Source: a virus (taxonomy: Duplodnaviria > Caudoviricetes). From it: 60,217 nucleotides of DNA. Made by a program: the position numbers and the translations under genes. The stretch spans positions 1 to 60,217 of IMG/VR virus record IMGVR_UViG_3300043427_000906; one strand, written 5' to 3'. This document shows, piece by piece, positions 9-60,217 of this stretch (positions within the stretch are counted from its first letter, which is position 1; every line of letters starts with the position of its first letter). A model generated the notes under the pieces. The model saw only the letters and a list, made by a program, of their open reading frames with translations. It was not told the origin of the DNA and ran no database searches.

Positions 9-182
9 TTACGCGTTCTCATAGGATAAAGATTTTATAAGGATTTCAGTTATAGTGTCTTGTACTTCGAATTCATCTTGGTCATCGGTGTCAATGCAAT
101 CCTTCACGTAACCAAGTTCGACTAGCTTATCCGTAATTCGAATAGCGATGTCGGTGATGTCATTTTCAGATAGCTTCTTCAT
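9..182 (-). CDS. Small acidic early protein, 57 aa (MKKLSENDITDIAIRITDKLVELGYVKDCID...SYENA); present only in allele A
   Basis: Translated by hand; ATG overlaps the end of the upstream ORF, stop overlaps the start of the next gene (MRTRKK). Confidence 0.75.
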   Translation of the reverse strand: MKKLSENDITDIAIRITDKLVELGYVKDCIDTDDQDEFEVQDTITEILIKSLSYENA

Positions 183-422: not shown

Positions 423-434
423 AACTATGGGGTT

Positions 435-485
435 AGGTTTCGCCTTGCTGAGGCTCATCAGTACGGACAGCATATCCGTAGACCT
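435..485 (-). ncRNA. Type III hammerhead ribozyme
   Basis: Minus strand reads AGGUC^UACGGA-UAUGCUG-UCCGUA-CUGAUGA-GCCU-CAGCA-AGGC-GAAACCU: complete core (CUGAUGA, GAAA, GUC), stems I-III, and loop1 UGCUG complementary to loop2 CAGCA. Confidence 0.92.
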
Positions 486-877
486 TGTCACTTACCGAGC
501 AGATACCAGTGATAAATCGACTGGCTCGTTAACCCGACCAGTGCAGACCTTTCGGCTCTCTGCACCCAACACCCTAACTTCGACTGGCGAAGGTTTGGCG
601 CGACCTAACGTGAACACTGGGAGTTGGTACGAAACCGCCAGTGTGCCTGATGTTTATTTGCTGAGGAGGGCATCCTCAAGTCCCATTCCCACTCTTCGTG
701 GTGGCTCACAACGTTTTACAACGGAAGGCTCATATCGGGACTATCGCTATGCATTTATCGTGGTTTGGTGACTGGCTATCCATCGTAAGCACCTTGTCGG
801 GTGGATGGGTAAGAGTGCGTTGCCCTAACACGTTGTAGCGAACATTTGAAAGAACTGCGGACTCATTGTCGAATCCG
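481..877 (-). ncRNA. ~400-nt structured early leader RNA between promoter and ribozyme cleavage site
   Basis: No credible ORF; many hairpins (GUGCAG..GCC-GAAA-GGU-CUGCAC; CACUGG/CCAGUG; AGUCCC/GGGACU; UGAGGA/UCCUCA; CCAC-GAAGA-GUGG; CCAGU/ACUGG); 5' end approximate. Confidence 0.65.
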
Positions 878-880
878 ATG

Positions 881-913
881 CAAACATAGGGTGGCAGGGT
901 AACTACTTCCAAA
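881..913 (-). promoter_or_regulatory. Bacteroidota sigma-type early promoter
   Basis: TTTG (913-910), 21 nt, TATGTTTG (888-881); matches the -33/-7 consensus TTTG/TAnnTTTG. Confidence 0.8.
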
Positions 914-933
914 TTTATTTTTAAAATTGATGG

Positions 934-995
934 TTATCCACACAAAAAAACCTTCGTAACTTGGTGAAAATCATAGCATAGAAAAGTTATCCACA
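934..995 (+). promoter_or_regulatory. Two perfect DnaA boxes
   Basis: TTATCCACA at 934-942 and 987-995, same orientation, AT-rich intergenic context. Confidence 0.7.
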
Positions 996-1060
996 TTCCA
1001 AAAGTTTTTTTACGAGGGGTGGTGAAAACGGGTAAAAATGGGCAAAATAATCCCAAAATA

Positions 1061-1126
1061 TTTAGCAAACGAATGCTAAAGAAATTAGTCGCTCACAATG
1101 AAAGCAAAATGCTAAAGAGATTAGCA
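1061..1126. promoter_or_regulatory. Clustered TGCTAA/TTAGCA inverted repeats (operator- or iteron-like)
   Basis: TTTAGCA-N6-TGCTAAA (1061-1080), TGCTAA-N5-TTAGTC (1074-1090), TGCTAA-N5-TTAGCA (1110-1126). Confidence 0.55.
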
Positions 1127-1149
1127 ATGGTAGGGGGTTCGGGGGTATA

Positions 1150-1479
1150 CTAGAGCCGTTTATTCACTAGGTAGTTACGTAAGTAAGAAAGGTATTCACG
1201 TCCAGTAGAAGAGATAGAATAATACTTGCCTTCACGTATAAGCAAACCCAGTTGGACAAGAGTGTTAAGAGTGTTCCAACTATTGCGGACATCCGGCACA
1301 ACGACGTGGGGACGGAAGCCGTTAACGTATCCAGTCAGATGAGAGATAGAAGAACGACCAAGCCGACGCGAAGCATAGAGGTAACGCAACTGGGAGTCAC
1401 TGAGTGGACGAACACCGATGCGACGAGAAGCACGATAGTTTGCCGCATCCCCCATTAGATAGTATTTTTCCGGCTTCAT
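1150..1479 (-). CDS. Winged-helix (MarR/ArsR-like) DNA-binding protein; start probably MKPEKYY rather than 1629
   Basis: C-terminal NTLNTLVQLGLLIREGKYYSISSTGREYL is a typical wHTH recognition helix plus wing. Confidence 0.6.
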   Translation of the reverse strand: MKPEKYYLMGDAANYRASRRIGVRPLSDSQLRYLYASRRLGRSSISHLTGYVNGFRPHVVVPDVRNSWNTLNTLVQLGLLIREGKYYSISSTGREYLSYLRNYLVNKRL

Positions 1480-49802: not shown

Positions 49803-50798
49803 TTATGTTAAGCGCACATTGAATTGTTTGCGCCATGTAATCTTTCCATTAGGCATCTCCATAATCTGAGCGCCACCATTCTGTTCCATATACTGCTTCA
49901 GCTGGTTACCATAGAGAAGCTTATGCGATTCCCAGTGCTTGATAGTATCATTGATGCGTACATATTCTTCTGCCCACTGCGCTTGTTCTTGCCCGCCTTG
50001 TATGGTGATATCATTCTCTCTATCCTTATGCTTAATGGATATGAATGCGTTGAAGTCTTCTGAGTTATCAGCAGGTGGTTCGAACTGTGCGGCGATACCA
50101 TAGATCTCTTCCTTATCACTGGCGCCTGCTTCACGTATAGCCTCCCGAGCTGACTGCACACGCATCTGATGTTCAGTTGCTTTACGTAAGATAGCTTCTT
50201 GGATATCCGGATCAGCTTCGAATGTCTTCACTAACATATCCTGACCATCAACTTGCATGCATATCTCTGCGTACTTCAGCCCAGTAACTAGCATGTAATG
50301 ATTCATCTGAGCGATGTAGTTCGGGGGAACACCATCGATATAAGAATCAACAGTCATCTTACCCACATTCTTAATCTCCAATACCCCTTTCTTCTTACCG
50401 TACACTGGGTGCTGCGTAACCATCCCATCTAGGTTAGCGAATAGCATCGGGTATTCTGGATTCTCGATGATGGCCTTCACCTTCTTGAACTTGCGAACCT
50501 TTGCCTTGTGTATAATATTCTGAATAAACTTCTCTTCACCATCCCAATACTGCCACATCTCTGCAATAGTATCCTCTAGCATCTTACCGAATGCCATCTG
50601 CCTATTCATTTTAGTAGGCAATAAATCCATACCGATTGACTGGTAGAATAGATTGATAGGGGACTTCCATTTGTTCCATCCCAGTAATGTTCCGGCGTCT
50701 GATCCGCCGACCATACCCCGAGATGAAAACGACTGGCGTAATCTTTGCCAGTCGATCTCGGATAGGTTCTTCGTGCTTGTCTGTTTAAGCTTTGGCAT
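49803..50798 (-). CDS. YqaJ-like (lambda exonuclease-type) recombination nuclease
   Basis: W...R...VGGSDAG..LG.NKWKSP...ANLDG...LEIKN...Y.AQ..HYM.VTG. Confidence 0.9.
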   Translation of the reverse strand: MPKLKQTSTKNLSEIDWQRLRQSFSSRGMVGGSDAGTLLGWNKWKSPINLFYQSIGMDLLPTKMNRQMAFGKMLEDTIAEMWQYWDGEEKFIQNIIHKAKVRKFKKVKAIIENPEYPMLFANLDGMVTQHPVYGKKKGVLEIKNVGKMTVDSYIDGVPPNYIAQMNHYMLVTGLKYAEICMQVDGQDMLVKTFEADPDIQEAILRKATEHQMRVQSAREAIREAGASDKEEIYGIAAQFEPPADNSEDFNAFISIKHKDRENDITIQGGQEQAQWAEEYVRINDTIKHWESHKLLYGNQLKQYMEQNGGAQIMEMPNGKITWRKQFNVRLT

Positions 50799-51465
50799 CC
50801 TTGATTAGTTTGGTTAAGGTTGTCTTCTGTGCTAGGTTCAACTTATACTTTGGTAGTGCTGCTTCAACATCGGCAATCTTGCCTTCGCTAATAGCCTTTA
50901 CCATTGCATCAAATTGCTTTGGTGACAACACCGTTAGTTCGGGGGATTCAGGAACCTCAGGCTTGGGACTTTCCTGAGGCGCCTTAGCTGGTTGCTTCCC
51001 CTTCGTGTTTATGTGTTTGGTTACATCCCATATGCGCTCTCCTCTGTCATCTACTGGGTTGCCATACTGGTCGCACTTTAATGTGACCATGTCTAAGTCA
51101 TAGAGAAATCTCCCGATCCCCCACTGAACGGCCGCCCTCTTGAATGCATCGGAGGCTGCAGACTTTCCAGCCTGCTCATACATTTGGTCCTTCTCATCAT
51201 TCTCTACCCTAGCACCGCAGTCCCATCTCCAGACCACAATACCAGTGCCGGTTGTTATTCCTATCCCTGCAAAAATGAAGCCACCTATCTCTTTAAAGTC
51301 TGATTGCCAGCCAAATAGACAGTGTGTGTCAAGAACATCCATCACCTGACGTGCATCGATATAGGCAGAACAAAAGGCCTTTGTCTTATCCTTGTTACGA
51401 CTCTGTACCCTCCATTGATAGGGGATCGGTTGCTTCAGTTGAGCAACTAAAATTTTGATATCCAT
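50785..51465 (-). CDS. Rad52/Sak-family single-strand annealing protein
   Basis: QWRVQS...AYIDARQVMD.LD...K.AASDAFKRAAVQWGIGRFLY. Confidence 0.9.
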   Translation of the reverse strand: MDIKILVAQLKQPIPYQWRVQSRNKDKTKAFCSAYIDARQVMDVLDTHCLFGWQSDFKEIGGFIFAGIGITTGTGIVVWRWDCGARVENDEKDQMYEQAGKSAASDAFKRAAVQWGIGRFLYDLDMVTLKCDQYGNPVDDRGERIWDVTKHINTKGKQPAKAPQESPKPEVPESPELTVLSPKQFDAMVKAISEGKIADVEAALPKYKLNLAQKTTLTKLIKDAKA

Positions 51466-51476
51466 AAAAAATAATT

Positions 51477-51701
51477 TTAAAGTGTGGCTAAATAGTCATT
51501 GAAGAAACCGTACTCATTAGCAAGGAAGTAGATAGTCTGCCAGTCATAATAGAACTTGGTGTCCTTACCAATATTAATAGCCTTAACGAAATGACCGACT
51601 ACCAATGATTCGTGGTTATGCATGAGCCATTTTCTATATGGCTTGAGTGCATACTCCTTGCCATCGATAATTAGGATGTCCTTTGAGTAGTCGTATTTCA
51701 T
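51477..51701 (-). CDS. Hypothetical protein
   Basis: ORF track. Confidence 0.5.
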   Translation of the reverse strand: MKYDYSKDILIIDGKEYALKPYRKWLMHNHESLVVGHFVKAINIGKDTKFYYDWQTIYFLANEYGFFNDYLATL

Positions 51702-51746
51702 ACATACTAAGTTACGAACTACCTGATATGTATAATTTTAAGTTAT

Positions 51747-52007
51747 TCACAAGTTATCTTCATCTGCAAATCCGTTTAGTCTGGCGTACTCTTGGTATAC
51801 TGGGCCGGAGGTAGTGCTACCCACCGTTGTTTTATCTAAGTCAAATTTAACCCAGTCACCATCACTAAGGGGCCATTTAGAATCCTTAATGGGAACCCAA
51901 CTCGTGCGGTTCATAATCATATCCTCGCGATAGATAATATGTTTCTGATACTTTACCCACCAACGGTTCTCTAATCTGTAAGTTTGTCCGATCATAATGA
52001 TAATCAA
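51747..52007 (-). CDS. Hypothetical protein
   Basis: ORF track. Confidence 0.5.
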   Translation of the reverse strand: MIIIMIGQTYRLENRWWVKYQKHIIYREDMIMNRTSWVPIKDSKWPLSDGDWVKFDLDKTTVGSTTSGPVYQEYARLNGFADEDNL

Positions 52008-52089
52008 TTAATTGTGAATAAAAACTGCATGAAATGTTACGCAAACTTCATGCAAATGTTTTACAAAATATATGCGTTTACGGAAACGT

Positions 52090-52120
52090 AAAAAGGCCCC
52101 AAGTGTAGAAACACAGGGCC
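52090..52120 (-). terminator. Intrinsic terminator after recombinase
   Basis: GGCCCT-GTGTTTCTACAC-TT-GGGGCC-TTTTT on the minus strand. Confidence 0.7.
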
Positions 52121-52139
52121 GGTACCTATGAAAAACCAA

Positions 52140-53147
52140 CTATTTATTTAAGAACGTCTCGTAATAATTATTTATTTCGCTCTTGTGTACACTATCCACC
52201 CATCCCTGATACCTCTTGATGGCATCTGACTTGTGGCCGGATGCAAACCTTACATGGTCTAGTGATACACCACCAGCCAGCATCGTTGTGATAGCGGTCT
52301 TGCGTAGCATGTGTGGGTGTACAATATCGCAGAACTTCTTTGACTGGAGCGATTTATCACCGGTGTGGTCGGCCTTCTTGTATGTAGTCTCCTCGTGCAT
52401 CTCATGGTAGGTAGCAAAGAACGGCTTTAGGTTTTTGTTGATGAATGTATCCTTACATCCGAAGCGAATGGGTGTATACACTGAACCGTATTTCTCTATA
52501 TTATAAAGATATCTTTTGTAAAGAGATTCCGGCAGTGGCAGTGTGGTCATCGCCCCAGTCTTCTGATTCTCCTTCATAAGATATACCGAGCCGTTCATCA
52601 CAACATCTGACTTGCTTAGATTTATAGCATCTCCAACACGAAGGGATGTGACTAGCATCGTTGCGCTCAGTTCCCAAAGATACTTATGTTCGGGGGACAT
52701 AGAATTATAGCGGTTAGCAGTGTCGTTAATAAAGTCCTTAACGAACTGGATGGGTAGTGTAACGATTGGTACGTCAACTCCAATAGCACGTCTTACTTTC
52801 GGTAGGGTAAGAAAGTACTGCTCAGCCCAGTAGTCTGTCACTATTTTTAGAATATTAGTGACATCACGTCTTGTGTTAGCTGAGAATTTCTGACGAGTCA
52901 TCCAGTCAATGAAGAGGTCAATGTGTCTATTGAACTTATCTGCAACGGCGCGTTTATCCTCTAGTGATAGGTTGGTTAGGTTAAACTCTTCTAGGTCGAT
53001 ACCAATCTTTGCGTATCGTTGGTATGTCTTGAATGCGAAATTGTATGACTTGATGGACATAGGTTTATAGTTCGTGCCGGATCGTGTGCGTAGTTCCCCA
53101 GTCCTCATCATCGTTACATACTTCTCTAGTAATGGTGTTAGCTTCAT
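52140..53147 (-). CDS. int: Tyrosine recombinase/integrase
   Basis: SLRVGD (R), QKTG (K), HPHMLRKT (HxxR), SGH, KRY catalytic set. Confidence 0.88.
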   Translation of the reverse strand: MKLTPLLEKYVTMMRTGELRTRSGTNYKPMSIKSYNFAFKTYQRYAKIGIDLEEFNLTNLSLEDKRAVADKFNRHIDLFIDWMTRQKFSANTRRDVTNILKIVTDYWAEQYFLTLPKVRRAIGVDVPIVTLPIQFVKDFINDTANRYNSMSPEHKYLWELSATMLVTSLRVGDAINLSKSDVVMNGSVYLMKENQKTGAMTTLPLPESLYKRYLYNIEKYGSVYTPIRFGCKDTFINKNLKPFFATYHEMHEETTYKKADHTGDKSLQSKKFCDIVHPHMLRKTAITTMLAGGVSLDHVRFASGHKSDAIKRYQGWVDSVHKSEINNYYETFLNK

Positions 53148-55284: not shown

Positions 55285-55569
55285 TTAAGATTTAAAATAC
55301 ATTTCATCTCTCCAAGTAGGATGAGCCGGAACATACTTACCATCTTTATTCCAAAAACCTAACTCCAATATATCAAAATGGATAGGCTTTACAAATGGTT
55401 CTTCATCAGTATGCTTCTCGTACCAGTTACACCATTCTTCTAAATCAAATCTTTCTGCATCCAATAGATAGCATCTTTCTTTGCCATCATTTTCTAAAAG
55501 GTCTTTCTCGATTACTATACCATTATCATCGGTGGTGATAGTGCCCCAACTTGATTCGATAGTTATCAT
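55285..55569 (-). CDS. Hypothetical early protein (start MITIESSWG)
   Basis: ORF track; start moved 3' of the structured element. Confidence 0.6.
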   Translation of the reverse strand: MITIESSWGTITTDDNGIVIEKDLLENDGKERCYLLDAERFDLEEWCNWYEKHTDEEPFVKPIHFDILELGFWNKDGKYVPAHPTWRDEMYFKS

Positions 55570-55588
55570 AGTTTTAAATTTTGATGAG

Positions 55589-55629
55589 GAACTGGTTGCC
55601 ATCGAAGGCCACGGCATATCCGCCAGTTC
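55589..55629 (-). ncRNA. Mini-tRNA-like junction element E1
   Basis: GAACUGG...GCC-UUCGAU-GGC..CCAGUUC, preceded by stop UAA-UCCCUC. Confidence 0.6.
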
Positions 55630-55635
55630 GAGGGA

Positions 55636-55950
55636 TTAATATTGAGGGAAGTCAATACCGTACTTGCTTGTGAAATTTATCTGCTCTTCCCTGCTGATGT
55701 AAATATGGATTGGATAGTCCATCATGCCCTTCAATTGGTTCATGTCAAAAATTGTATAGTGTGATTCATCATCCAACTTTAGTCCCATATTTTCTACGCT
55801 TGATAGGTAGAACTGGAGTGCCTTCTTGATAATATCTTTTTGGCCTTGTGGAATTTCAATTCGATTGTTGGATATTTCATTGAACTTAAATTCGAATTCC
55901 CAATCAATTTGATTTGCATCGATTCCTTTGTACGTGATTTTGTAACTCAT
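55636..55950 (-). CDS. Hypothetical early protein (start MSYKITY)
   Basis: ORF track; start adjusted. Confidence 0.6.
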   Translation of the reverse strand: MSYKITYKGIDANQIDWEFEFKFNEISNNRIEIPQGQKDIIKKALQFYLSSVENMGLKLDDESHYTIFDMNQLKGMMDYPIHIYISREEQINFTSKYGIDFPQY

Positions 55951-55971
55951 TTGTTTTAGGGTTTTGGTGAG

Positions 55972-56018
55972 GAACTGCATCGGTCACGAGCCGATAGTCA
56001 AGCGGTCTTGAGCAGTTC
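55972..56018 (-). ncRNA. Mini-tRNA-like junction element E2
   Basis: GAACUGC-UCAAG(ACCG)CUUGA-CU-AUCGG(CUCGUGA)CCGAU-GCAGUUC then CUCACCAAAAC. Confidence 0.75.
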
Positions 56019-56024
56019 GGGGGA

Positions 56025-56213
56025 TTATATACATAGCCTAATCTCAGAGATTTCAGTACCATCAACTAGCCTTAGACCAATGACTTCATCTACCGAAAAT
56101 TCATATAGGTCTTCAGTCCTATAACCTTCGTGTATCTCAACAACGACTGCATCTTCATCCCTAAAATCTGCTATGGCTTTTTTTAGTTCGCCAATGGTTG
56201 TTATCTTGCTCAT
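56025..56213 (-). CDS. Hypothetical early protein
   Basis: ORF track. Confidence 0.6.
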   Translation of the reverse strand: MSKITTIGELKKAIADFRDEDAVVVEIHEGYRTEDLYEFSVDEVIGLRLVDGTEISEIRLCI

Positions 56214-56233
56214 ATGTTTTTAATTTTATTTAA

Positions 56234-56473
56234 TTAATCTACCCAGTCGGGTAAGCAAAGTTTTCTTTCTACTAATTCTGCACGTATCTTACTCTCATTC
56301 GCCATTAAGAAACTTTCCATACATTCATACTCACCCCTATCGGGATTGTTGTAGGAGGAATTTTCATACTTGGAATAGAGTAACAATAGGTCTTCATAGA
56401 GTAGGTCATACTCATACTGGATACCCACATACGCATTGTATAACTGGGTGAAGAGGAAGAAGGAGTAGTTCAT
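56234..56473 (-). CDS. Hypothetical early protein
   Basis: ORF track. Confidence 0.6.
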   Translation of the reverse strand: MNYSFFLFTQLYNAYVGIQYEYDLLYEDLLLLYSKYENSSYNNPDRGEYECMESFLMANESKIRAELVERKLCLPDWVD

Positions 56474-56490
56474 AGTGTTTTATTTAAAGG

Positions 56491-56877
56491 TTAATAATCA
56501 TCGTACCATATCTCTTGCCATTCAGAACGTGGACGTATACTCTGACCGGCGGCATTGTAACATTTCCCACAATAACAGTAGCATAGACCTTCACTATCCA
56601 TATCCATCTCAAACCTCTTACCACATTCGCATTCAGCTATAGCCGGAGTAAACCTACTAAACTCTCTTTCTTGTACATATGGTGGTCTAATCGCGCCGAC
56701 CATACCATCAATGCATTGCTGATAGTTGTGCTTGGCATACTCATTTAAGCTATCAACATCAACGTGTCCATACTGGTCACAAGGGAAGGAGAAACCGCCA
56801 TTACTGGAGGTGTCATAGTTCAGCGAATGTTCCACGAAAAATTCTCTTTCGGAATGTTTGATGATTTTTGCGCTCAT
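56491..56877 (-). CDS. Cys-rich early protein
   Basis: GFSFPCD...ECECG...CYCGKCYN..GQ. Confidence 0.65.
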   Translation of the reverse strand: MSAKIIKHSEREFFVEHSLNYDTSSNGGFSFPCDQYGHVDVDSLNEYAKHNYQQCIDGMVGAIRPPYVQEREFSRFTPAIAECECGKRFEMDMDSEGLCYCYCGKCYNAAGQSIRPRSEWQEIWYDDY

Positions 56878-56956
56878 AAAAATAGATTTGGTTAAGAATT
56901 TTCTATCTCTTCCGCGAGGCGGATTAACTCATCGATTGCTTCTTGTATCTCATCCA

Positions 56957-57223
56957 TTACCACTCATTTTCGGTGAAGAATTTAATTGAATTTTGGATGC
57001 TACCAGTTGTGCCTTTCTTAATCTCATCACGACTGGGGATGTAGTTACCATAGTAGTCGCGGTGGGATTCTTTTGGTAGGAAACACGCGCCAGTCTTCAG
57101 CATATCCATAGCCGATCGACCAATCGCACCTTCCATCTTCCAAGCAGTACCAGTTTCGATGAGGAACTGCATCTCCGCGTAGCCTTGCTCACGTTGATGC
57201 TTTCTAATTGTTTGGATGTTCAT
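56957..57223 (-). CDS. Hypothetical early protein
   Basis: ORF track; AWKMEG..GR.AM...RDYYGN.IPSR. Confidence 0.65.
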   Translation of the reverse strand: MNIQTIRKHQREQGYAEMQFLIETGTAWKMEGAIGRSAMDMLKTGACFLPKESHRDYYGNYIPSRDEIKKGTTGSIQNSIKFFTENEW

Positions 57224-57242
57224 AGGTTTGAAATTTAGTTAG

Positions 57243-57285
57243 GAACTGCCGGAGGAATCGAACCTCCGTAAGACCATCGCAGTTC
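57243..57285 (-). ncRNA. Mini-tRNA-like junction element E3
   Basis: GAACUGC-GAUGGUCUUA-CGGAGG(UUCGAUU)CCUCCG-GCAGUUC; canonical T-loop. Confidence 0.8.
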
Positions 57286-57289
57286 TTTT

Positions 57290-57358
57290 GCCGAGCCGAT
57301 AGTGAACACATCTATGTCCTCCTATCCCCACACTATATGTGGTGGCTCTCGGCGGTTC
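57290..57358 (-). ncRNA. Additional branched structure 5' of E3
   Basis: GCCGAG/CUCGGC closing stem, CCACA-UAUAG-UGUGG hairpin, GAUAG/CUAUC; shares GAGCCACCAC..GUGGGRAURGG with 683-707. Confidence 0.55.
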
Positions 57359-57364
57359 GGGGGA

Positions 57365-57640
57365 TTACTCAATCTCTACTAGTTCACCATCCTTTAGTAC
57401 GTACTGATAGTCATCTTCATCCTCCCATTCAGTCCAATAAGAATCAGTATCGGCTATTAACTCACCATCCTCATCCGTATCTCCCGAATAGACCATATCG
57501 TGCCATTCAGCATCGGTAAATTCTTTATTGAGGCAGTTTTGTGAGCAGTAGTATTCTACACCACCGCCAACTACATAGCCATCATTCATACCACATCCAC
57601 ACTCGGTGCATTTTCTTGCAAATTTCATAGGATTAATCAT
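57365..57640 (-). CDS. Acidic zinc-finger early protein
   Basis: CTEC...YYCSQNC; acidic tail with YWTEW. Confidence 0.65.
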   Translation of the reverse strand: MINPMKFARKCTECGCGMNDGYVVGGGVEYYCSQNCLNKEFTDAEWHDMVYSGDTDEDGELIADTDSYWTEWEDEDDYQYVLKDGELVEIE

Positions 57641-57785
57641 TTAATGAATTAATGTGTTCAATTTCAGCATCATCTAGGTAGATGCAGAGTCCGTTATCTA
57701 GTTTGATGTAGTGGTCACCGGCATCAATTATCTTTTTGCCTACTAGATAATCTTTGGTTTCGGGTGAGATTTTTTCAACTTGCAT
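57633..57785 (-). CDS. Hypothetical early protein, 50 aa (MQVEKISPETKDYLVGKKI...)
   Basis: Translated by hand. Confidence 0.55.
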   Translation of the reverse strand: MQVEKISPETKDYLVGKKIIDAGDHYIKLDNGLCIYLDDAEIEHINSLND

Positions 57786-57803
57786 AGTTTGTGTTTTGGT
57801 TAT

Positions 57804-58013
57804 TTAGATAATAGTTTTTAGGACTCTATGCCCATAGAAGGCATATTGACCAAATTCTACGTAGTTACTTTCAGCATCAATGCAGTTCGTAACTTTCAAT
57901 AACTTACCTCTTGGAGGTGTGTCTCCTTCTAGGTCTTCAATGTCTAGAACAATGACCTCATCCCCAACTTCTAGGGTGTTGCCATCTACATCATTACAAA
58001 AAAAGTTTTTCAT
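57804..58013 (-). CDS. Small SH3/KOW-like early protein (start MKNFFC)
   Basis: DVDGNTLEVGDEV motif. Confidence 0.55.
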   Translation of the reverse strand: MKNFFCNDVDGNTLEVGDEVIVLDIEDLEGDTPPRGKLLKVTNCIDAESNYVEFGQYAFYGHRVLKTII

Positions 58014-58033
58014 ATTATAGGGGGTTTGGTGAG

Positions 58034-58079
58034 GAACTGAGGGTGGTTTCGCTCCGACTTCGGTCAAACTTCGCAGTCC
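58034..58079 (-). ncRNA. Mini-tRNA-like junction element E4 (degenerate)
   Basis: GGACUG...CGAA-GUCGG(AGCGAAA)CCACC-CUCAGUUC then CUCACCAAA; 3' half identical to E5. Confidence 0.6.
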
Positions 58080-58085
58080 GGTGGA

Positions 58086-58262
58086 TTAAAATTTAATCCA
58101 TTGTTCTTCCGGAAGGAACTCAAGAAGATTGTCTTTGGGAATAAAGGACAATAATGCCCAAACAGCAGTAGTGTCTCCATCTTCAACATCTTTTAAAATC
58201 TGCTCAATTACTGCATCAATTAATGCTTTTTTTTCTACCATAACTTCAATAGTTGTCTTCAT
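58086..58262 (-). CDS. Hypothetical early protein, 58 aa (MKTTIEVMVEKKALIDAVIEQI...)
   Basis: Translated by hand; exactly bracketed by E5 and E4. Confidence 0.7.
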   Translation of the reverse strand: MKTTIEVMVEKKALIDAVIEQILKDVEDGDTTAVWALLSFIPKDNLLEFLPEEQWIKF

Positions 58263-58282
58263 TTGTGTTTTGATTTGGTGAG

Positions 58283-58328
58283 GAACTGAGGGTGGTAACG
58301 AACCACCTTCGCACGTTGCTCTCAGTTC
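58283..58328 (-). ncRNA. Mini-tRNA-like junction element E5
   Basis: GAACUGAG-AGCAACGUGCGAA-GGUGG(UUCGUUA)CCACC-CUCAGUUC then CUCACCAAA. Confidence 0.78.
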
Positions 58329-58334
58329 GGGGGA

Positions 58335-58820
58335 TTAAAACTCCCAGTCATAGTGATACTCTGCAACACCGAAGAGGATATTAACCTTATCGAATGACTT
58401 CTTGACTTTAGTCACTCCATCAATCAATCGAAGGTCACCTCTATCATCCCATACGTTAAGTAGCTTCTGCGCATCCCATAACTCCTCTCTAGTGGCGAAA
58501 GAATTGTACCAATCATCGTTGAATACAATCATATTGCACTCTTTCCTCCACGCACGATTGCGGTATACTAAGGTATGCTTGGGGGCAGATAGGTCGGGGG
58601 TAATATCCCACTCTTGATGTCCCATACCTTCGCCTATCGCTTTATGCTTCATCGCTCTAATTACGCACCTCTTACCATCATTAGATACCTCTAGCACCTC
58701 GTAAGGGTATCGGTCGGAATACATTAGCAGAGTAGCACCTTTGCCTACTTCGGGAACGGATGAATTGTTGCCCATTAGGTAGTTGGTGAAGCTACCTTCT
58801 AGTTTTCTTTTTTGTCTCAT
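58335..58820 (-). CDS. Hypothetical early protein
   Basis: PEVGKGAT...SDRYPYEV...G....YDWEF. Confidence 0.7.
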   Translation of the reverse strand: MRQKRKLEGSFTNYLMGNNSSVPEVGKGATLLMYSDRYPYEVLEVSNDGKRCVIRAMKHKAIGEGMGHQEWDITPDLSAPKHTLVYRNRAWRKECNMIVFNDDWYNSFATREELWDAQKLLNVWDDRGDLRLIDGVTKVKKSFDKVNILFGVAEYHYDWEF

Positions 58821-58839
58821 AGGTTTAAAATTTGATTCG

Positions 58840-58882
58840 TAACTGGGAGGGGAGTCGAACCCCTCCTAAGACCATCCAGTTA
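58840..58882 (-). ncRNA. Mini-tRNA-like junction element E6
   Basis: UAACUGG-AUGGUCUUAG-GAGGGG(UUCGACU)CCCCUC-CCAGUUA; begins in the upstream stop codon. Confidence 0.8.
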
Positions 58883-59641
58883 TCCGCATACGAACTCCGG
58901 TATGCTTACTTCAACCCCATTCTCTACGATATCTTTCAGCCAGTTCTTCTCCTTGCCACTCATCAGCAAGGTGAATCCTAATCTCTCTTCGGTTTCTACG
59001 TAGCGCTTGTATAGGTCGGGATTATGCTTAGCCGCTACTTTGATATCACTTTTATTGGACATAATACAAAACACACACGATAGTCGGCTCATACCTAAAT
59101 CGTAGGCATAGTGTCTCTTTTGACCTACTGATTCGATTTCTGCCCATACTTCCTTAACACTCCAGTCAAAAATGGGTAACCAGTCATACCATTCGCGACC
59201 GGCTTTGCTATTGCGTTCACTGATACGGAATGGGATTTGTTTTGCTCGTGCTGATGATTCTTCCGCGCGGATGCCCATACAATTCACGATGATATTTTTG
59301 CCGTTTTCCTTGCACCAGTTACGGATAAATTTCTCAATCGGTTGTCTCTTGAGGTCACTGGTACACTGGCGATAACTGGGGGATGGGAACATACCACGAT
59401 GCTCGACCATCTCAAAGAAAGTTTTTCCGGCACGTACCATATGCGCCTCAATGCCCATTGAATTCTGCTGAACGTGTTCCCAACATCCCTCCCAGTCAAC
59501 TTCGGGTAGGTCTGCGTGGATGATTACCAGTTGGTCGTGTGGAACGACTTTGCTCAAAAATATTTTCATTGCTTGAGAATCCTTTCCACCGGAATCATTG
59601 ATGAAAAATATTGCGCCTCTGTCAATTAATTGCTGAATCAT
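58880..59641 (-). CDS. PAPS reductase-family (PP-loop, Fe-S) protein
   Basis: DSGGKDS, QCTSDLKRQP, GIRAEESSAR, WLPIFDW, SRLSCVFC. Confidence 0.85.
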   Translation of the reverse strand: MIQQLIDRGAIFFINDSGGKDSQAMKIFLSKVVPHDQLVIIHADLPEVDWEGCWEHVQQNSMGIEAHMVRAGKTFFEMVEHRGMFPSPSYRQCTSDLKRQPIEKFIRNWCKENGKNIIVNCMGIRAEESSARAKQIPFRISERNSKAGREWYDWLPIFDWSVKEVWAEIESVGQKRHYAYDLGMSRLSCVFCIMSNKSDIKVAAKHNPDLYKRYVETEERLGFTLLMSGKEKNWLKDIVENGVEVSIPEFVCG

Positions 59642-59660
59642 AAAATTGGGGTTTGGTGGT

Positions 59661-59704
59661 AACTGGGGGCAGTATCGCTCTGCCTTCGGACTTTCCTCCC
59701 AGTT
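59661..59704 (-). ncRNA. Mini-tRNA-like junction element E7
   Basis: AACUGGG-A-GGA(AAG)UCC-GAA-GGCAG(AGCGAUA)CUGCC-CCCAGUU followed directly by ACCA. Confidence 0.75.
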
Positions 59705-59711
59705 CGGGTGA

Positions 59712-59795
59712 CTACTTACAAAACTGGTCTTGCAGTAGACCTACAACGTACCCTACTACTAGCAGAGTAACGAAGAGATAGATAACTTGTCTCAT
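59712..59795 (-). CDS. 27-aa membrane peptide (MRQVIYLFVTLLVVGYVVGLLQDQFCK)
   Basis: Translated by hand; ATGA-coupled to the upstream ORF, stop directly before E7. Confidence 0.6.
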   Translation of the reverse strand: MRQVIYLFVTLLVVGYVVGLLQDQFCK

Positions 59796-59983
59796 AAGGA
59801 TAAATTTGCTTGTCTACAAATGCGCTCCCATTTTAGGTCTCGGAGCAATTGCTTAGAATCACCGCCAATTTCGTTGAGAATCTGCCTTACCCTATTATGG
59901 GTGGAGATGGTAACCTCAGTACGGCGGATGAGCTGACCATTGGTCTTGGATGTGAATAACGGCATTTTTTTACGCGTTCTCAT
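59792..59983 (-). CDS. Basic early protein (MRTRKK...)
   Basis: ORF track. Confidence 0.6.
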   Translation of the reverse strand: MRTRKKMPLFTSKTNGQLIRRTEVTISTHNRVRQILNEIGGDSKQLLRDLKWERICRQANLSL

Positions 59984-60217
59984 GGGTAGGAGATTTTAAG
60001 ATGATTGAATCGGATTCGAATTTTACTATAGCCCATCCTAAGTACATTAGTTGGGCGGCAAGTTTCTGACCACTGAGGGTGGTTAGGTCGATTGTCTGCA
60101 TAACTGATTTTTAAATGATTAAAACAATGTTGATGCGATAAGTAGGCAGATGCCAAACACCGCGATAAAATAGCAAAAACCTTCGATAATTTGTCTTGCT
60201 TCGTTCGTAGTTTGATG
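59962..60217. repeat. Terminal overlap, allele B (lacks the 57-aa gene)
   Basis: Matches 1-22 joined directly to 183-416. Confidence 0.95.

Follow-up and report, generated by a model that had tools for sequence, protein, structure and literature searches.

The phage contig IMGVR_UViG_3300043427_000906, analysed here over its whole length of 60,217 bp and referred to as the window, carries seven elements of 41–47 nt at gene junctions of its minus strand, and these elements are almost certainly members of a real structured RNA family. The family is undescribed in Rfam and in the searched literature, where a catalogue of 8,495 candidate structured RNAs from IMG/VR (PMC10690425) may hold the motif, and its fold is under selection. 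Taken as a whole, the data seem best explained by tRNA-like elements that serve both as processing signals of the message and as crossover points of the DNA, a reading to which slightly less than even confidence is given. For its parts, a cis-acting role in processing or stability of the RNA is judged probable, and action through RNase P or RNase Z is a plausible but tentative proposal. The elements are listed below from the first of the array to the last, with bit scores from a covariance model and z scores from RNA folding.

59660–59705, minus strand: E7, class B, 54.3 bits, z −2.79, the first element of the array, ahead of a PAPS-reductase gene; 7-bp outer stem AACUGGG/CCCAGUU, mini-hairpin GGA-AAG-UCC, GAA, inner stem GGCAG/CUGCC, loop AGCGAUA.
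58840–58882, minus strand: E6, class A, 45.9 bits; outer stem UAACUGG/CCAGUUA, linker AUGGUCUUAG, T-arm-like hairpin GAGGGG-UUCGACU-CCCCUC.
58283–58328, minus strand: E5, class B, 73 bits, z −4.62; 8-bp outer stem, mini-hairpin GCA-ACG-UGC, GAA, inner stem GGUGG/CCACC, loop UUCGUUA.
58034–58079, minus strand: E4, a broken, chimeric copy with z +0.40 and no fold.
57291–57382, minus strand: a partial or degenerate element, consisting of a stop codon, the 5′ flank of the family UAAUCCCCCGAAC and about 90 nt of unrelated structured sequence, followed by E3.
57243–57285, minus strand: E3, class A, 57.7 bits, z −2.62, with an identical core in the related locus L122; outer stem GAACUGC/GCAGUUC, linker GAUGGUCUUA, T-arm-like hairpin CGGAGG-UUCGAUU-CCUCCG.
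55972–56018, minus strand: E2, 50.3 bits, z −3.38; 7-bp outer stem, 5-bp mini-hairpin with loop ACCG, inner stem AUCGG/CCGAU, loop CUCGUGA.
55589–55629, minus strand: E1, a conserved subclass D, 42.8 bits, z −2.19; 7-bp outer stem, mini-hairpin CGG-AUAUG-CCG, short inner stem GCC/GGC around UUCGAU, 1-nt bulge.

An original prediction, made from the letters of the contig, had placed seven elements at these minus-strand junctions, and all of them were found there and nowhere else in the genome. The covariance model, among whose seeds the seven elements were included, returned exactly these seven from the 60,217-bp genome at 42.8–73 bits, the next match being the antisense of E1 at 13 bits. The loops that the prediction had quoted (UUCGAUU, UUCGACU, UUCGUUA, CUCGUGA, AGCGAUA and AGCGAAA), its quoted stems, the linker AUGGUCUUA common to E3 and E6, and the UAAUCCCCC leaders were also verified. 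Moreover, the pattern AACTG-N18-45-CAGTT occurs eight times in the window versus 2.23 expected, a count that none of 100 shuffles reached; six of these eight matches are elements, and E4, which reads GGACTG, is missed. The two-stem fold is obtained by RNA folding in six of the seven elements (z −1.2 to −4.6), E4 being the exception. Two copies had been described as imperfect: this holds for E4, whereas E1 is not decayed and represents a conserved, covarying subclass of seven members with compensatory changes. E4 itself is a recombinant chimera of a class-B 5′ part like that of the related locus L042 and the 3′ part of E5, its first 40 nt being identical at 34 of 40 positions to the L042 element versus 24 of 40 to E5, and its 3′ 23 nt being identical to E5 throughout (23/23). 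Copies of the E5 type that are 90–95% identical occur in L099, L119, L120 and L092 within non-homologous flanks. The partial element upstream of E3 is likely a recombination scar; in L117 the same gene end is joined straight to an E3-type element, and a joint of a variant contig falls within the partial element at 57375.

Relatives were gathered by two pattern scans of IMG/VR, giving about 28 related contigs of 35–70 kb; an IMG/VR scan with the 15-mer CAGTTCCTCACCAAA returned 95 stretches, mostly chance matches, of which only L010, L042, L082 and L049 were useful. Seventy copies were aligned by MAFFT, without fitting to a structure, and the covariance model was built from that alignment. Ten stretches had been left out before the seed alignment on inspection of their folds (L096_740, L100_2641, L104_1392, L106_6210, L107_887, L108_3250, L112_12077, L114_3621, L114_4024 and L123_7276); most of them are chance or coding matches, and L108_3250 is a divergent true copy that was regained by the model. 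Covariation was judged on a 7-bp outer and a 5-bp inner stem, comparing the pairing cells with those of shuffles and of slid partners. In the 70 copies, 96.3% of the cells pair versus 75.5% in shuffles, none of 500 shuffles reaching the observed value, and slid partners pair in 24–48%; changes on both sides were found in 11 of the 12 stem pairs. The covariation of the stems that had been proposed from the seven copies is therefore borne out. The model was then searched against 28 of the 33 listed loci (L096, L106, L107, L114 and L123 being excluded) and recovered 107 copies there, of which 87 are distinct; within each locus, every copy has the same orientation. The total set comprises 94 distinct copies, the seven of the window included.

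The phages that carry the family are a clade of uncultured freshwater podophages of about 55–65 kb, and each of the five near-complete related genomes holds 6–7 copies on a single strand, clustered within 1.8–3.3 kb. A gapped-pattern scan of 185,579 GTDB species genomes returned 48 stretches, among which there is one true element (L156, 60.5 bits, on a 5.3-kb contig of a metagenome-assembled genome); the other 47 score 32.8 bits at most, and the scan pointed to no host. The model found nothing significant, with a best score of 14.8 bits, on three GenBank relatives by terminase (MW202828, NC_055854 and PP540027), and blastn of the element region against GenBank phages gave zero matches. That the elements belong to no named RNA family, as had been supposed, agrees with Rfam 15, which gives no match at gathering score over the whole window; its E-value mode over 55300–60217 returned, at E ≤ 10, only two chance snoRNA matches and a 17-nt fragment of the T-arm of transfer-messenger RNA (tmRNA) on E6.

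In their anatomy, the elements resemble the upper half of a tRNA, in which an acceptor stem and the T-stem are stacked coaxially over 12 bp; as a minihelix, this half is a substrate of RNase P, RNase Z and the CCA-adding enzyme. An outer stem of 7–8 bp and an inner stem of 5–6 bp abut directly in 84 of the 94 copies, and the stack of these 84 parsed copies totals 13 bp in 49, 12 in 12, 14 in 14, 11 in 8 and 15 in one, that is, 12–14 bp in 75. The total of 12–13 bp that had been read from the seven copies is thus found in 61 of the 84, and the range of the family is wider (11–15 bp, most commonly 13). The loop has 7 nt in 86 copies, all of which (86/86) have C3 and G4; a full T-loop UUCGAnU with a G53–C61 closing pair is present in 35 of the 94 copies, and the T-arm motif of tRNAs, GGTTCRANYCC, in 29. 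This motif matches the window three times versus 0.24 expected, with two of the matches in E3 and E6. The likeness to the tRNA top half asserted in the original prediction stands to this extent, and does not extend to a canonical T-loop in the remaining 59 of the 94 copies.

The stretch between the two stems varies by class. In class A (35 copies), the linker is unstructured, about 10 nt long and contains UGG in all 35, and the loop is UUCGAnU; class B has an A, a mini-hairpin of 2–3 bp and GAA, the middle pair of the mini-hairpin being C–G in 11 rows and G–C in 12; further linker classes have longer mini-hairpins. GG is found in 40 of 41 unstructured linkers and 34 of 45 mini-hairpin loops end in G, so that an exposed G or GG occurs in the linker of nearly all classes. 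The closing G–C pair, C56 and G57 (tRNA numbering) and the exposed G are therefore common to the classes, and we take them to be the residues of the elbow formed by the D-loop and the T-loop in tRNA, where G18–G19 of the D-loop contact T-loop positions 55–56. By this analogy, the elements, as Y-shaped structures, would mimic the acceptor/T-arm top half and the elbow of a tRNA. They are not tRNAs as such, an identity that was considered and rejected, with 41–47 nt versus a cloverleaf of about 72–90 nt, no tRNA gene and no tmRNA called by ARAGORN in the window and no match to RF00005. The same anatomy bears on the view that the elements are passive stability hairpins of the repetitive extragenic palindrome (REP) type, which would merely protect message ends that arise in some other way from exonucleases and would not be recognized as tRNA-like. 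Such hairpins would suit stable autonomous folds located directly after stop codons, the absence of a terminator tail and the many loops that are not T-loops. However, they leave the constant stack length, the invariant loop C–G, the closing G–C pair and the exposed linker G unexplained, and this view seems rather improbable.

The elements occupy a fixed slot between genes, which can be summarized as follows.

55567–59659, minus strand: the element slot, reading stop codon, 5–8 nt that are usually CCCCC, element, the consensus CUCAUCAAA and an AUG at 18–21 nt.

The next AUG lies 18–21 nt past the stem in 88 of the 94 copies, and, where an open reading frame (ORF) precedes the element (80 copies), its stop codon is 5–8 nt away from the stem in 61; in E6, the UAA that ends the PAPS-reductase gene also forms the first three bases of the outer stem. 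Among the tails, CUCAUCAAA is the most frequent (37/94), and CUCACCAAA is found in 10 of the 94 copies. The tails that had been read as CCA-like are present, as CUCACCA after E2, E4 and E5 and as ACCA after E7, but their interpretation has to be abandoned. The AAA of CUCAUCAAA falls at positions −13 to −11 of the next AUG, and the alignment shows that the ACCA of E7, which E7 alone reads, is a shortened form of the family flank. In Flavobacterium johnsoniae, adenines at −14 to −11, chiefly A-12 and A-13, promote initiation, according to PMC6847099. With the AUG at 18–21 nt and the A-tract of Bacteroidetes type at −13 to −11, the downstream flank is a Bacteroidota-type translation initiation region of the next gene and not a CCA mimic. 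The host is probably a member of the Bacteroidota, since Shine–Dalgarno-like motifs precede only 4 of the 81 genes of the phage and, among 119 terminase matches, all below 60% identity, most of the named ones are phages of Flavobacterium, Cellulophaga and allied genera. As side observations on the flank, a sequence stop-UAUA-CCCCC-GAAC at 1137–1152 (minus strand) follows a 159-aa ORF (1150–1629) and has no hairpin behind it, and a similar flank is located about 25 nt upstream of a tRNA-Trp in L097.

The tight spacing to the AUG raises the alternative that the elements act in translation, as an operator or insulator. In this case, the fold, which abuts the footprint of the 30S subunit, would bind a phage or host RNA-binding protein to co-silence the early genes, or would shield the start region from G-rich sequence. 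The 18–21 nt in 88 of 94 copies, the initiation-promoting A-tract in the 3′ flank and the conservation of the outer-stem sequence and of the loop C–G beyond the needs of pairing would all fit such a role. Nevertheless, element-free junctions of the same operon show the same start region with no hairpin, and the start region is never sequestered within the fold. Moreover, searches of Pfam and PHROGs with 41 early ORFs found no nuclease, RNA-binding protein or RNA polymerase family, which counts weakly, as most of these ORFs are of unknown function. An operator or insulator is thus considered doubtful as the main role.

The claim that the elements are not terminators is upheld, given that no U-tract follows any of them and that a terminator scan gave 6 sites versus 5.2 expected, with none at the elements. 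Nor was a promoter-like site found in the spacer between stem and AUG in either of two scans; a sigma-70-like match starts inside the 3′ arm of E1 (55619) and enters the next gene. A terminator-like hairpin with a U-rich tail was observed at 59726–59741 (minus strand), at the end of a 63-aa ORF just upstream of E7, and the Bacteroidetes promoter pattern has 4 matches versus 2.1 expected, which is not significant. Terminators or attenuators, suggested by hairpins at gene ends, are consequently very improbable, and the same low standing is given to a new class of self-cleaving ribozymes. Ribozymes tend to cluster, and a hammerhead candidate lies nearby, but the linker classes have hardly any conserved unpaired bases in common from which a catalytic core might be built, and no Rfam ribozyme matches the elements at E ≤ 10.

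The evidence that favours RNA processing is indirect and comes from the surroundings of the arrays. Of 31 related loci, six carry true tRNA genes close to the array and on its strand, which represent five distinct tRNAs. Two of the five are located 10–16 nt past a stop codon and 12–14 nt ahead of the AUG of an ORF of 48–73 codons, and a third has an AUG 20 nt downstream and an upstream stop 127 nt away. Since true tRNAs sit within the operons of relatives in element-like slots, tRNA enzymes must already cut these operon transcripts. One of the tRNAs called by ARAGORN in the array operon of a relative has the anticodon CUA, of the amber-suppressor type (L100:4133–4211 and L112:13574–13652, both plus strand), with a TAG stop 10 nt before it and an AUG 14 nt after it; the tRNA called in L109 has the same acceptor stem, and an odd 93-nt call in L110 is similar only in its T-arm. 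Encoded CCA is absent from 18 of 20 distinct tRNA genes sampled in three Bacteroidota genomes. All 20 of these (L181–L210) show a C after the discriminator, then usually A or U, with a full CCA in two. RNase Z makes tRNA 3′ ends by cutting CCA-less precursors after the discriminator. A further feature on the same strand as the array is the following.

432–488, minus strand: a type III hammerhead ribozyme candidate (RF00008, 39.4 bits, under the gathering score of 48.5, E 2.4e-6), with a predicted cut GUC|U between 481 and 480.

After merging of the overlapping contig ends, the candidate is located about 0.57 kb upstream of E7, and it recurs in four of five related genomes 350–760 nt upstream of the first element. 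Its core CUGAUGA...GAAA is invariant in all five sequences, cleavage would follow a GUC or GUA triplet, and each of the three stems (I, II and III) covaries. The tRNAs in the operon, the hammerhead upstream and the CCA-less tRNAs of Bacteroidota are together the reason why RNA processing is the favoured reading. Beside the hammerhead, about 650 nt with no ORF of at least 30 aa (about 490–1140, minus strand) separate it from the 159-aa ORF; this region is 73–85% identical to relatives, includes a weak promoter pattern of Bacteroidetes type at 881–913 and could be a structured leader or a non-coding RNA that is set free by ribozyme cleavage. The idea that the conserved leader supplies an antisense RNA acting in trans was considered and rejected, the longest complementarity to the element flanks being 7 nt, which is the core of the hammerhead.

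According to this proposal, the operon would be transcribed as one long RNA whose 5′ leader is trimmed by the hammerhead, and each element would fold alone and be read by host RNase P on its 5′ side, RNase Z on its 3′ side or both. The long RNA would thus be cut into units, so that the upstream message ends in a protective tRNA-like fold and the downstream message begins with an unstructured leader of about 19 nt, while the conserved ends of the elements would act as DNA crossover points, allowing small gene cassettes to be acquired, lost or exchanged among relatives. A bolder version would make this a phage form of mitochondrial tRNA punctuation, where elbow mimics of about 45 nt replace the true tRNAs that related phages have in equivalent slots and recruit RNase P/Z on a ribozyme-trimmed early polycistron, the excised mini-tRNAs are perhaps CCA-tagged decoys and the diversified modules drive cassette shuffling; in this complete form the idea is unlikely. 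The decoy function alone, in which released RNAs of about 45 nt, perhaps after CCA addition, would titrate a tRNA-targeting defence of the host or a tRNA enzyme, shares the structural evidence given above and would profit from several diverse copies per genome. However, the elements have no anticodon arm and no conserved identity elements, and this function must be regarded as highly unlikely.

A number of observations weigh against tRNA-type processing signals that double as crossover points. The commonest stack is 13 bp versus 12 bp in tRNA, which could presumably be read as a canonical stack of 12 bp extended by a G(-1)–C73 pair like that of tRNA-His. Positions 54, 55 and 58 vary in the 59 of 94 copies that depart from the canonical T-loop, the elements are invisible to ARAGORN and to the Rfam tRNA model RF00005, even at E ≤ 10, and no NCCA follows the stem. 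The CCA sample was drawn from three arbitrary Bacteroidota genomes. G–U pairs (15) versus A–C pairs (8) favour the sense strand only weakly; a stem-extension count for the strand had the opposite sign, which came from counted loop-closing C–A pairs, and was not used. As for RNA data, the sole RNA-library run (X20) consists of contigs, not reads, and only four small ones fall on the region; RNA ends are not visible in contigs, and the single one that crosses E7 (59648–59863) is uncut and may be DNA. Stretches uncovered in every run were not counted as evidence. On the DNA side, 10 of 30 joint ends of variant contigs fall at element-free gene junctions, indicating that gene borders break in general. 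Moreover, a gene that is preceded by an element in one phage can follow a plain junction in another (loose end 57787), which means that no individual gene requires an element.

The elements also act as joints for the shuffling of gene cassettes, a role absent from the original prediction, because in three metagenome runs they are the sites where contigs of relatives diverge and rejoin. Variant joints were found at 55596->56013 and 58039->58323, each with a different element interior between, and a deletion of one gene (58024->58274) across 23 shared bases. At 58826/58827->59648, in two metagenome runs, the PAPS-reductase cassette is absent, whose gene lies within 58880–59641 (minus strand) between E7 and E6. 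Among the 30 joint ends, 17 are located in an element or at most 6 nt from one, one in the partial element (57375), 10 at other gene junctions and two within genes. Moreover, in BLAST comparisons with related loci, blocks of homology begin or end at elements, and the genes of the array are patchily shared, each with 0–8 of 24 loci. Recombination genes are encoded downstream.

Within 49803–53147, minus strand: a tyrosine integrase, an Erf-like annealing protein and a RecE/YqaJ-like exonuclease, 2.4–5.8 kb downstream of the array.

The diversity of the interiors within one genome would limit self-deletion by the Erf/RecE system of the phage. These findings are also the basis of a reading in which the elements are chiefly a DNA-level device, that is, PeSL- or attC-like cassette boundary sites for the phage Erf/RecE or for the tyrosine integrase acting on folded single strands. 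It is helped by breakage and rejoining inside the elements, by the hybrid nature of E4, by the patchy sharing of array genes and by the presence of Erf, RecE-like exonuclease and integrase, the last with homologues in 7 of 24 related loci. Nonetheless, homologous exchange requires identity, not covarying stems or a conserved loop, and the fixed register to the AUG points to RNA.

In T4-type phages, small stem-loop cassettes called promoter-early stem-loops (PeSLs) flank non-essential ORFs in hyperplastic regions and allow modular shuffling through recombination, as described in PMC2839356 and PMC4122927. The break points of the elements behave like those PeSLs, but a PeSL, as described there, combines a sigma-70 promoter with a terminator, and the elements have neither, with about 19 nt from stem to AUG, no U-tract and a covarying tRNA-like fold. 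The elements also recall REPs and integron attC sites in being repeated structured palindromes right after stop codons, arranged in cassette-like arrays, whose pairing is kept despite sequence variation; they differ in that no REP-associated tyrosine transposase (RAYT) or integron-type machinery was identified, in being confined to one operon and in the fixed AUG register. Integron attC sites have R″/R′ boxes RYYYAAC...GTTRRRY, L boxes, extrahelical bases and a length of 57–141 nt. An attC identity was rejected: CCCGAAC ... GTTCCTC agrees with these boxes only at AAC and GTT, and 41–47 nt is below the range of attC. A role that is chiefly at the DNA level is accordingly quite unlikely, and the preferred reading remains that of RNA elements that are used as joints as well.

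The closest documented precedent for tRNA-like elements as processing signals is the t-elements of plant mitochondria, which, in PMC1920247, are tRNA-like folds with GGTTCRANYCC beside coding regions, whose borders are mRNA ends made by RNase Z and RNase P. E3 and E6 carry this motif exactly. However, t-elements as described there are cloverleaf-like, of about 74 nt and single, whereas the phage elements have 41–47 nt, no anticodon arm and a linker mini-hairpin of at most 2–5 bp, and stand in arrays of 6–7 in a bacteriophage, mostly without a full T-loop. The tRNA-like domain of tmRNA offers another parallel, with its acceptor stem stacked on a T-arm and its reduced D-loop, and E6 matches it locally (E 0.012); the match covers 17 nt only, the elements lack both an mRNA-like domain and a terminal CCA, and ARAGORN does not call them as tmRNA. 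The early region of T7 is punctuated by RNase III sites, intercistronic hairpins just upstream of the next start region at which the message is cut, leaving structured 3′ ends. The phage elements are similar in being several conserved intercistronic hairpins ahead of the next start region in an early message, but the T7 sites are long irregular duplexes for RNase III, whereas the elements are branched stacks of 13 bp with a T-like loop, too short for classical RNase III.

The plus strand of the window encodes the structural genes, including terminase, a P22-like portal, an SU10-like capsid protein and a tail fibre. The minus strand bears a long unit of small ORFs of unknown function followed by the integrase, the Erf and RecE-like recombination genes and a primase-helicase; this unit is probably the early operon, and the element-bearing slot is presumably in its variable part. 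A 2709-aa protein matched no PHROG family. By terminase, the nearest GenBank relatives, at about 30% identity, are Flavobacterium and Maribacter phages and one uncultured phage. The contig ends overlap (179–416 versus 59980–60217, 97.9% over 238 nt; 1–45 versus 59962–60006, 82%), and the assembly is circular or terminally redundant; the two ends are population variants, distinguished by the presence of an additional 57-aa ORF (9–182, minus strand).

If tRNA-processing enzymes read the elements, a phage message punctuated in a tRNA-like manner would have been described for the first time, and one small module would serve both an RNA function and genome plasticity. The setting is the Bacteroidota, in which neither the signals for translation start nor the decay of RNA are well understood so far. 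The family may also provide a compact, well-sampled model for the minimum part of a tRNA that tRNA-processing enzymes need, and synthetic operons for Bacteroidota could use its elements as natural insulators or processing parts. Even if other enzymes are involved, the elements constitute a new structured RNA family with about 6–7 copies per genome and unusually clear covariation.

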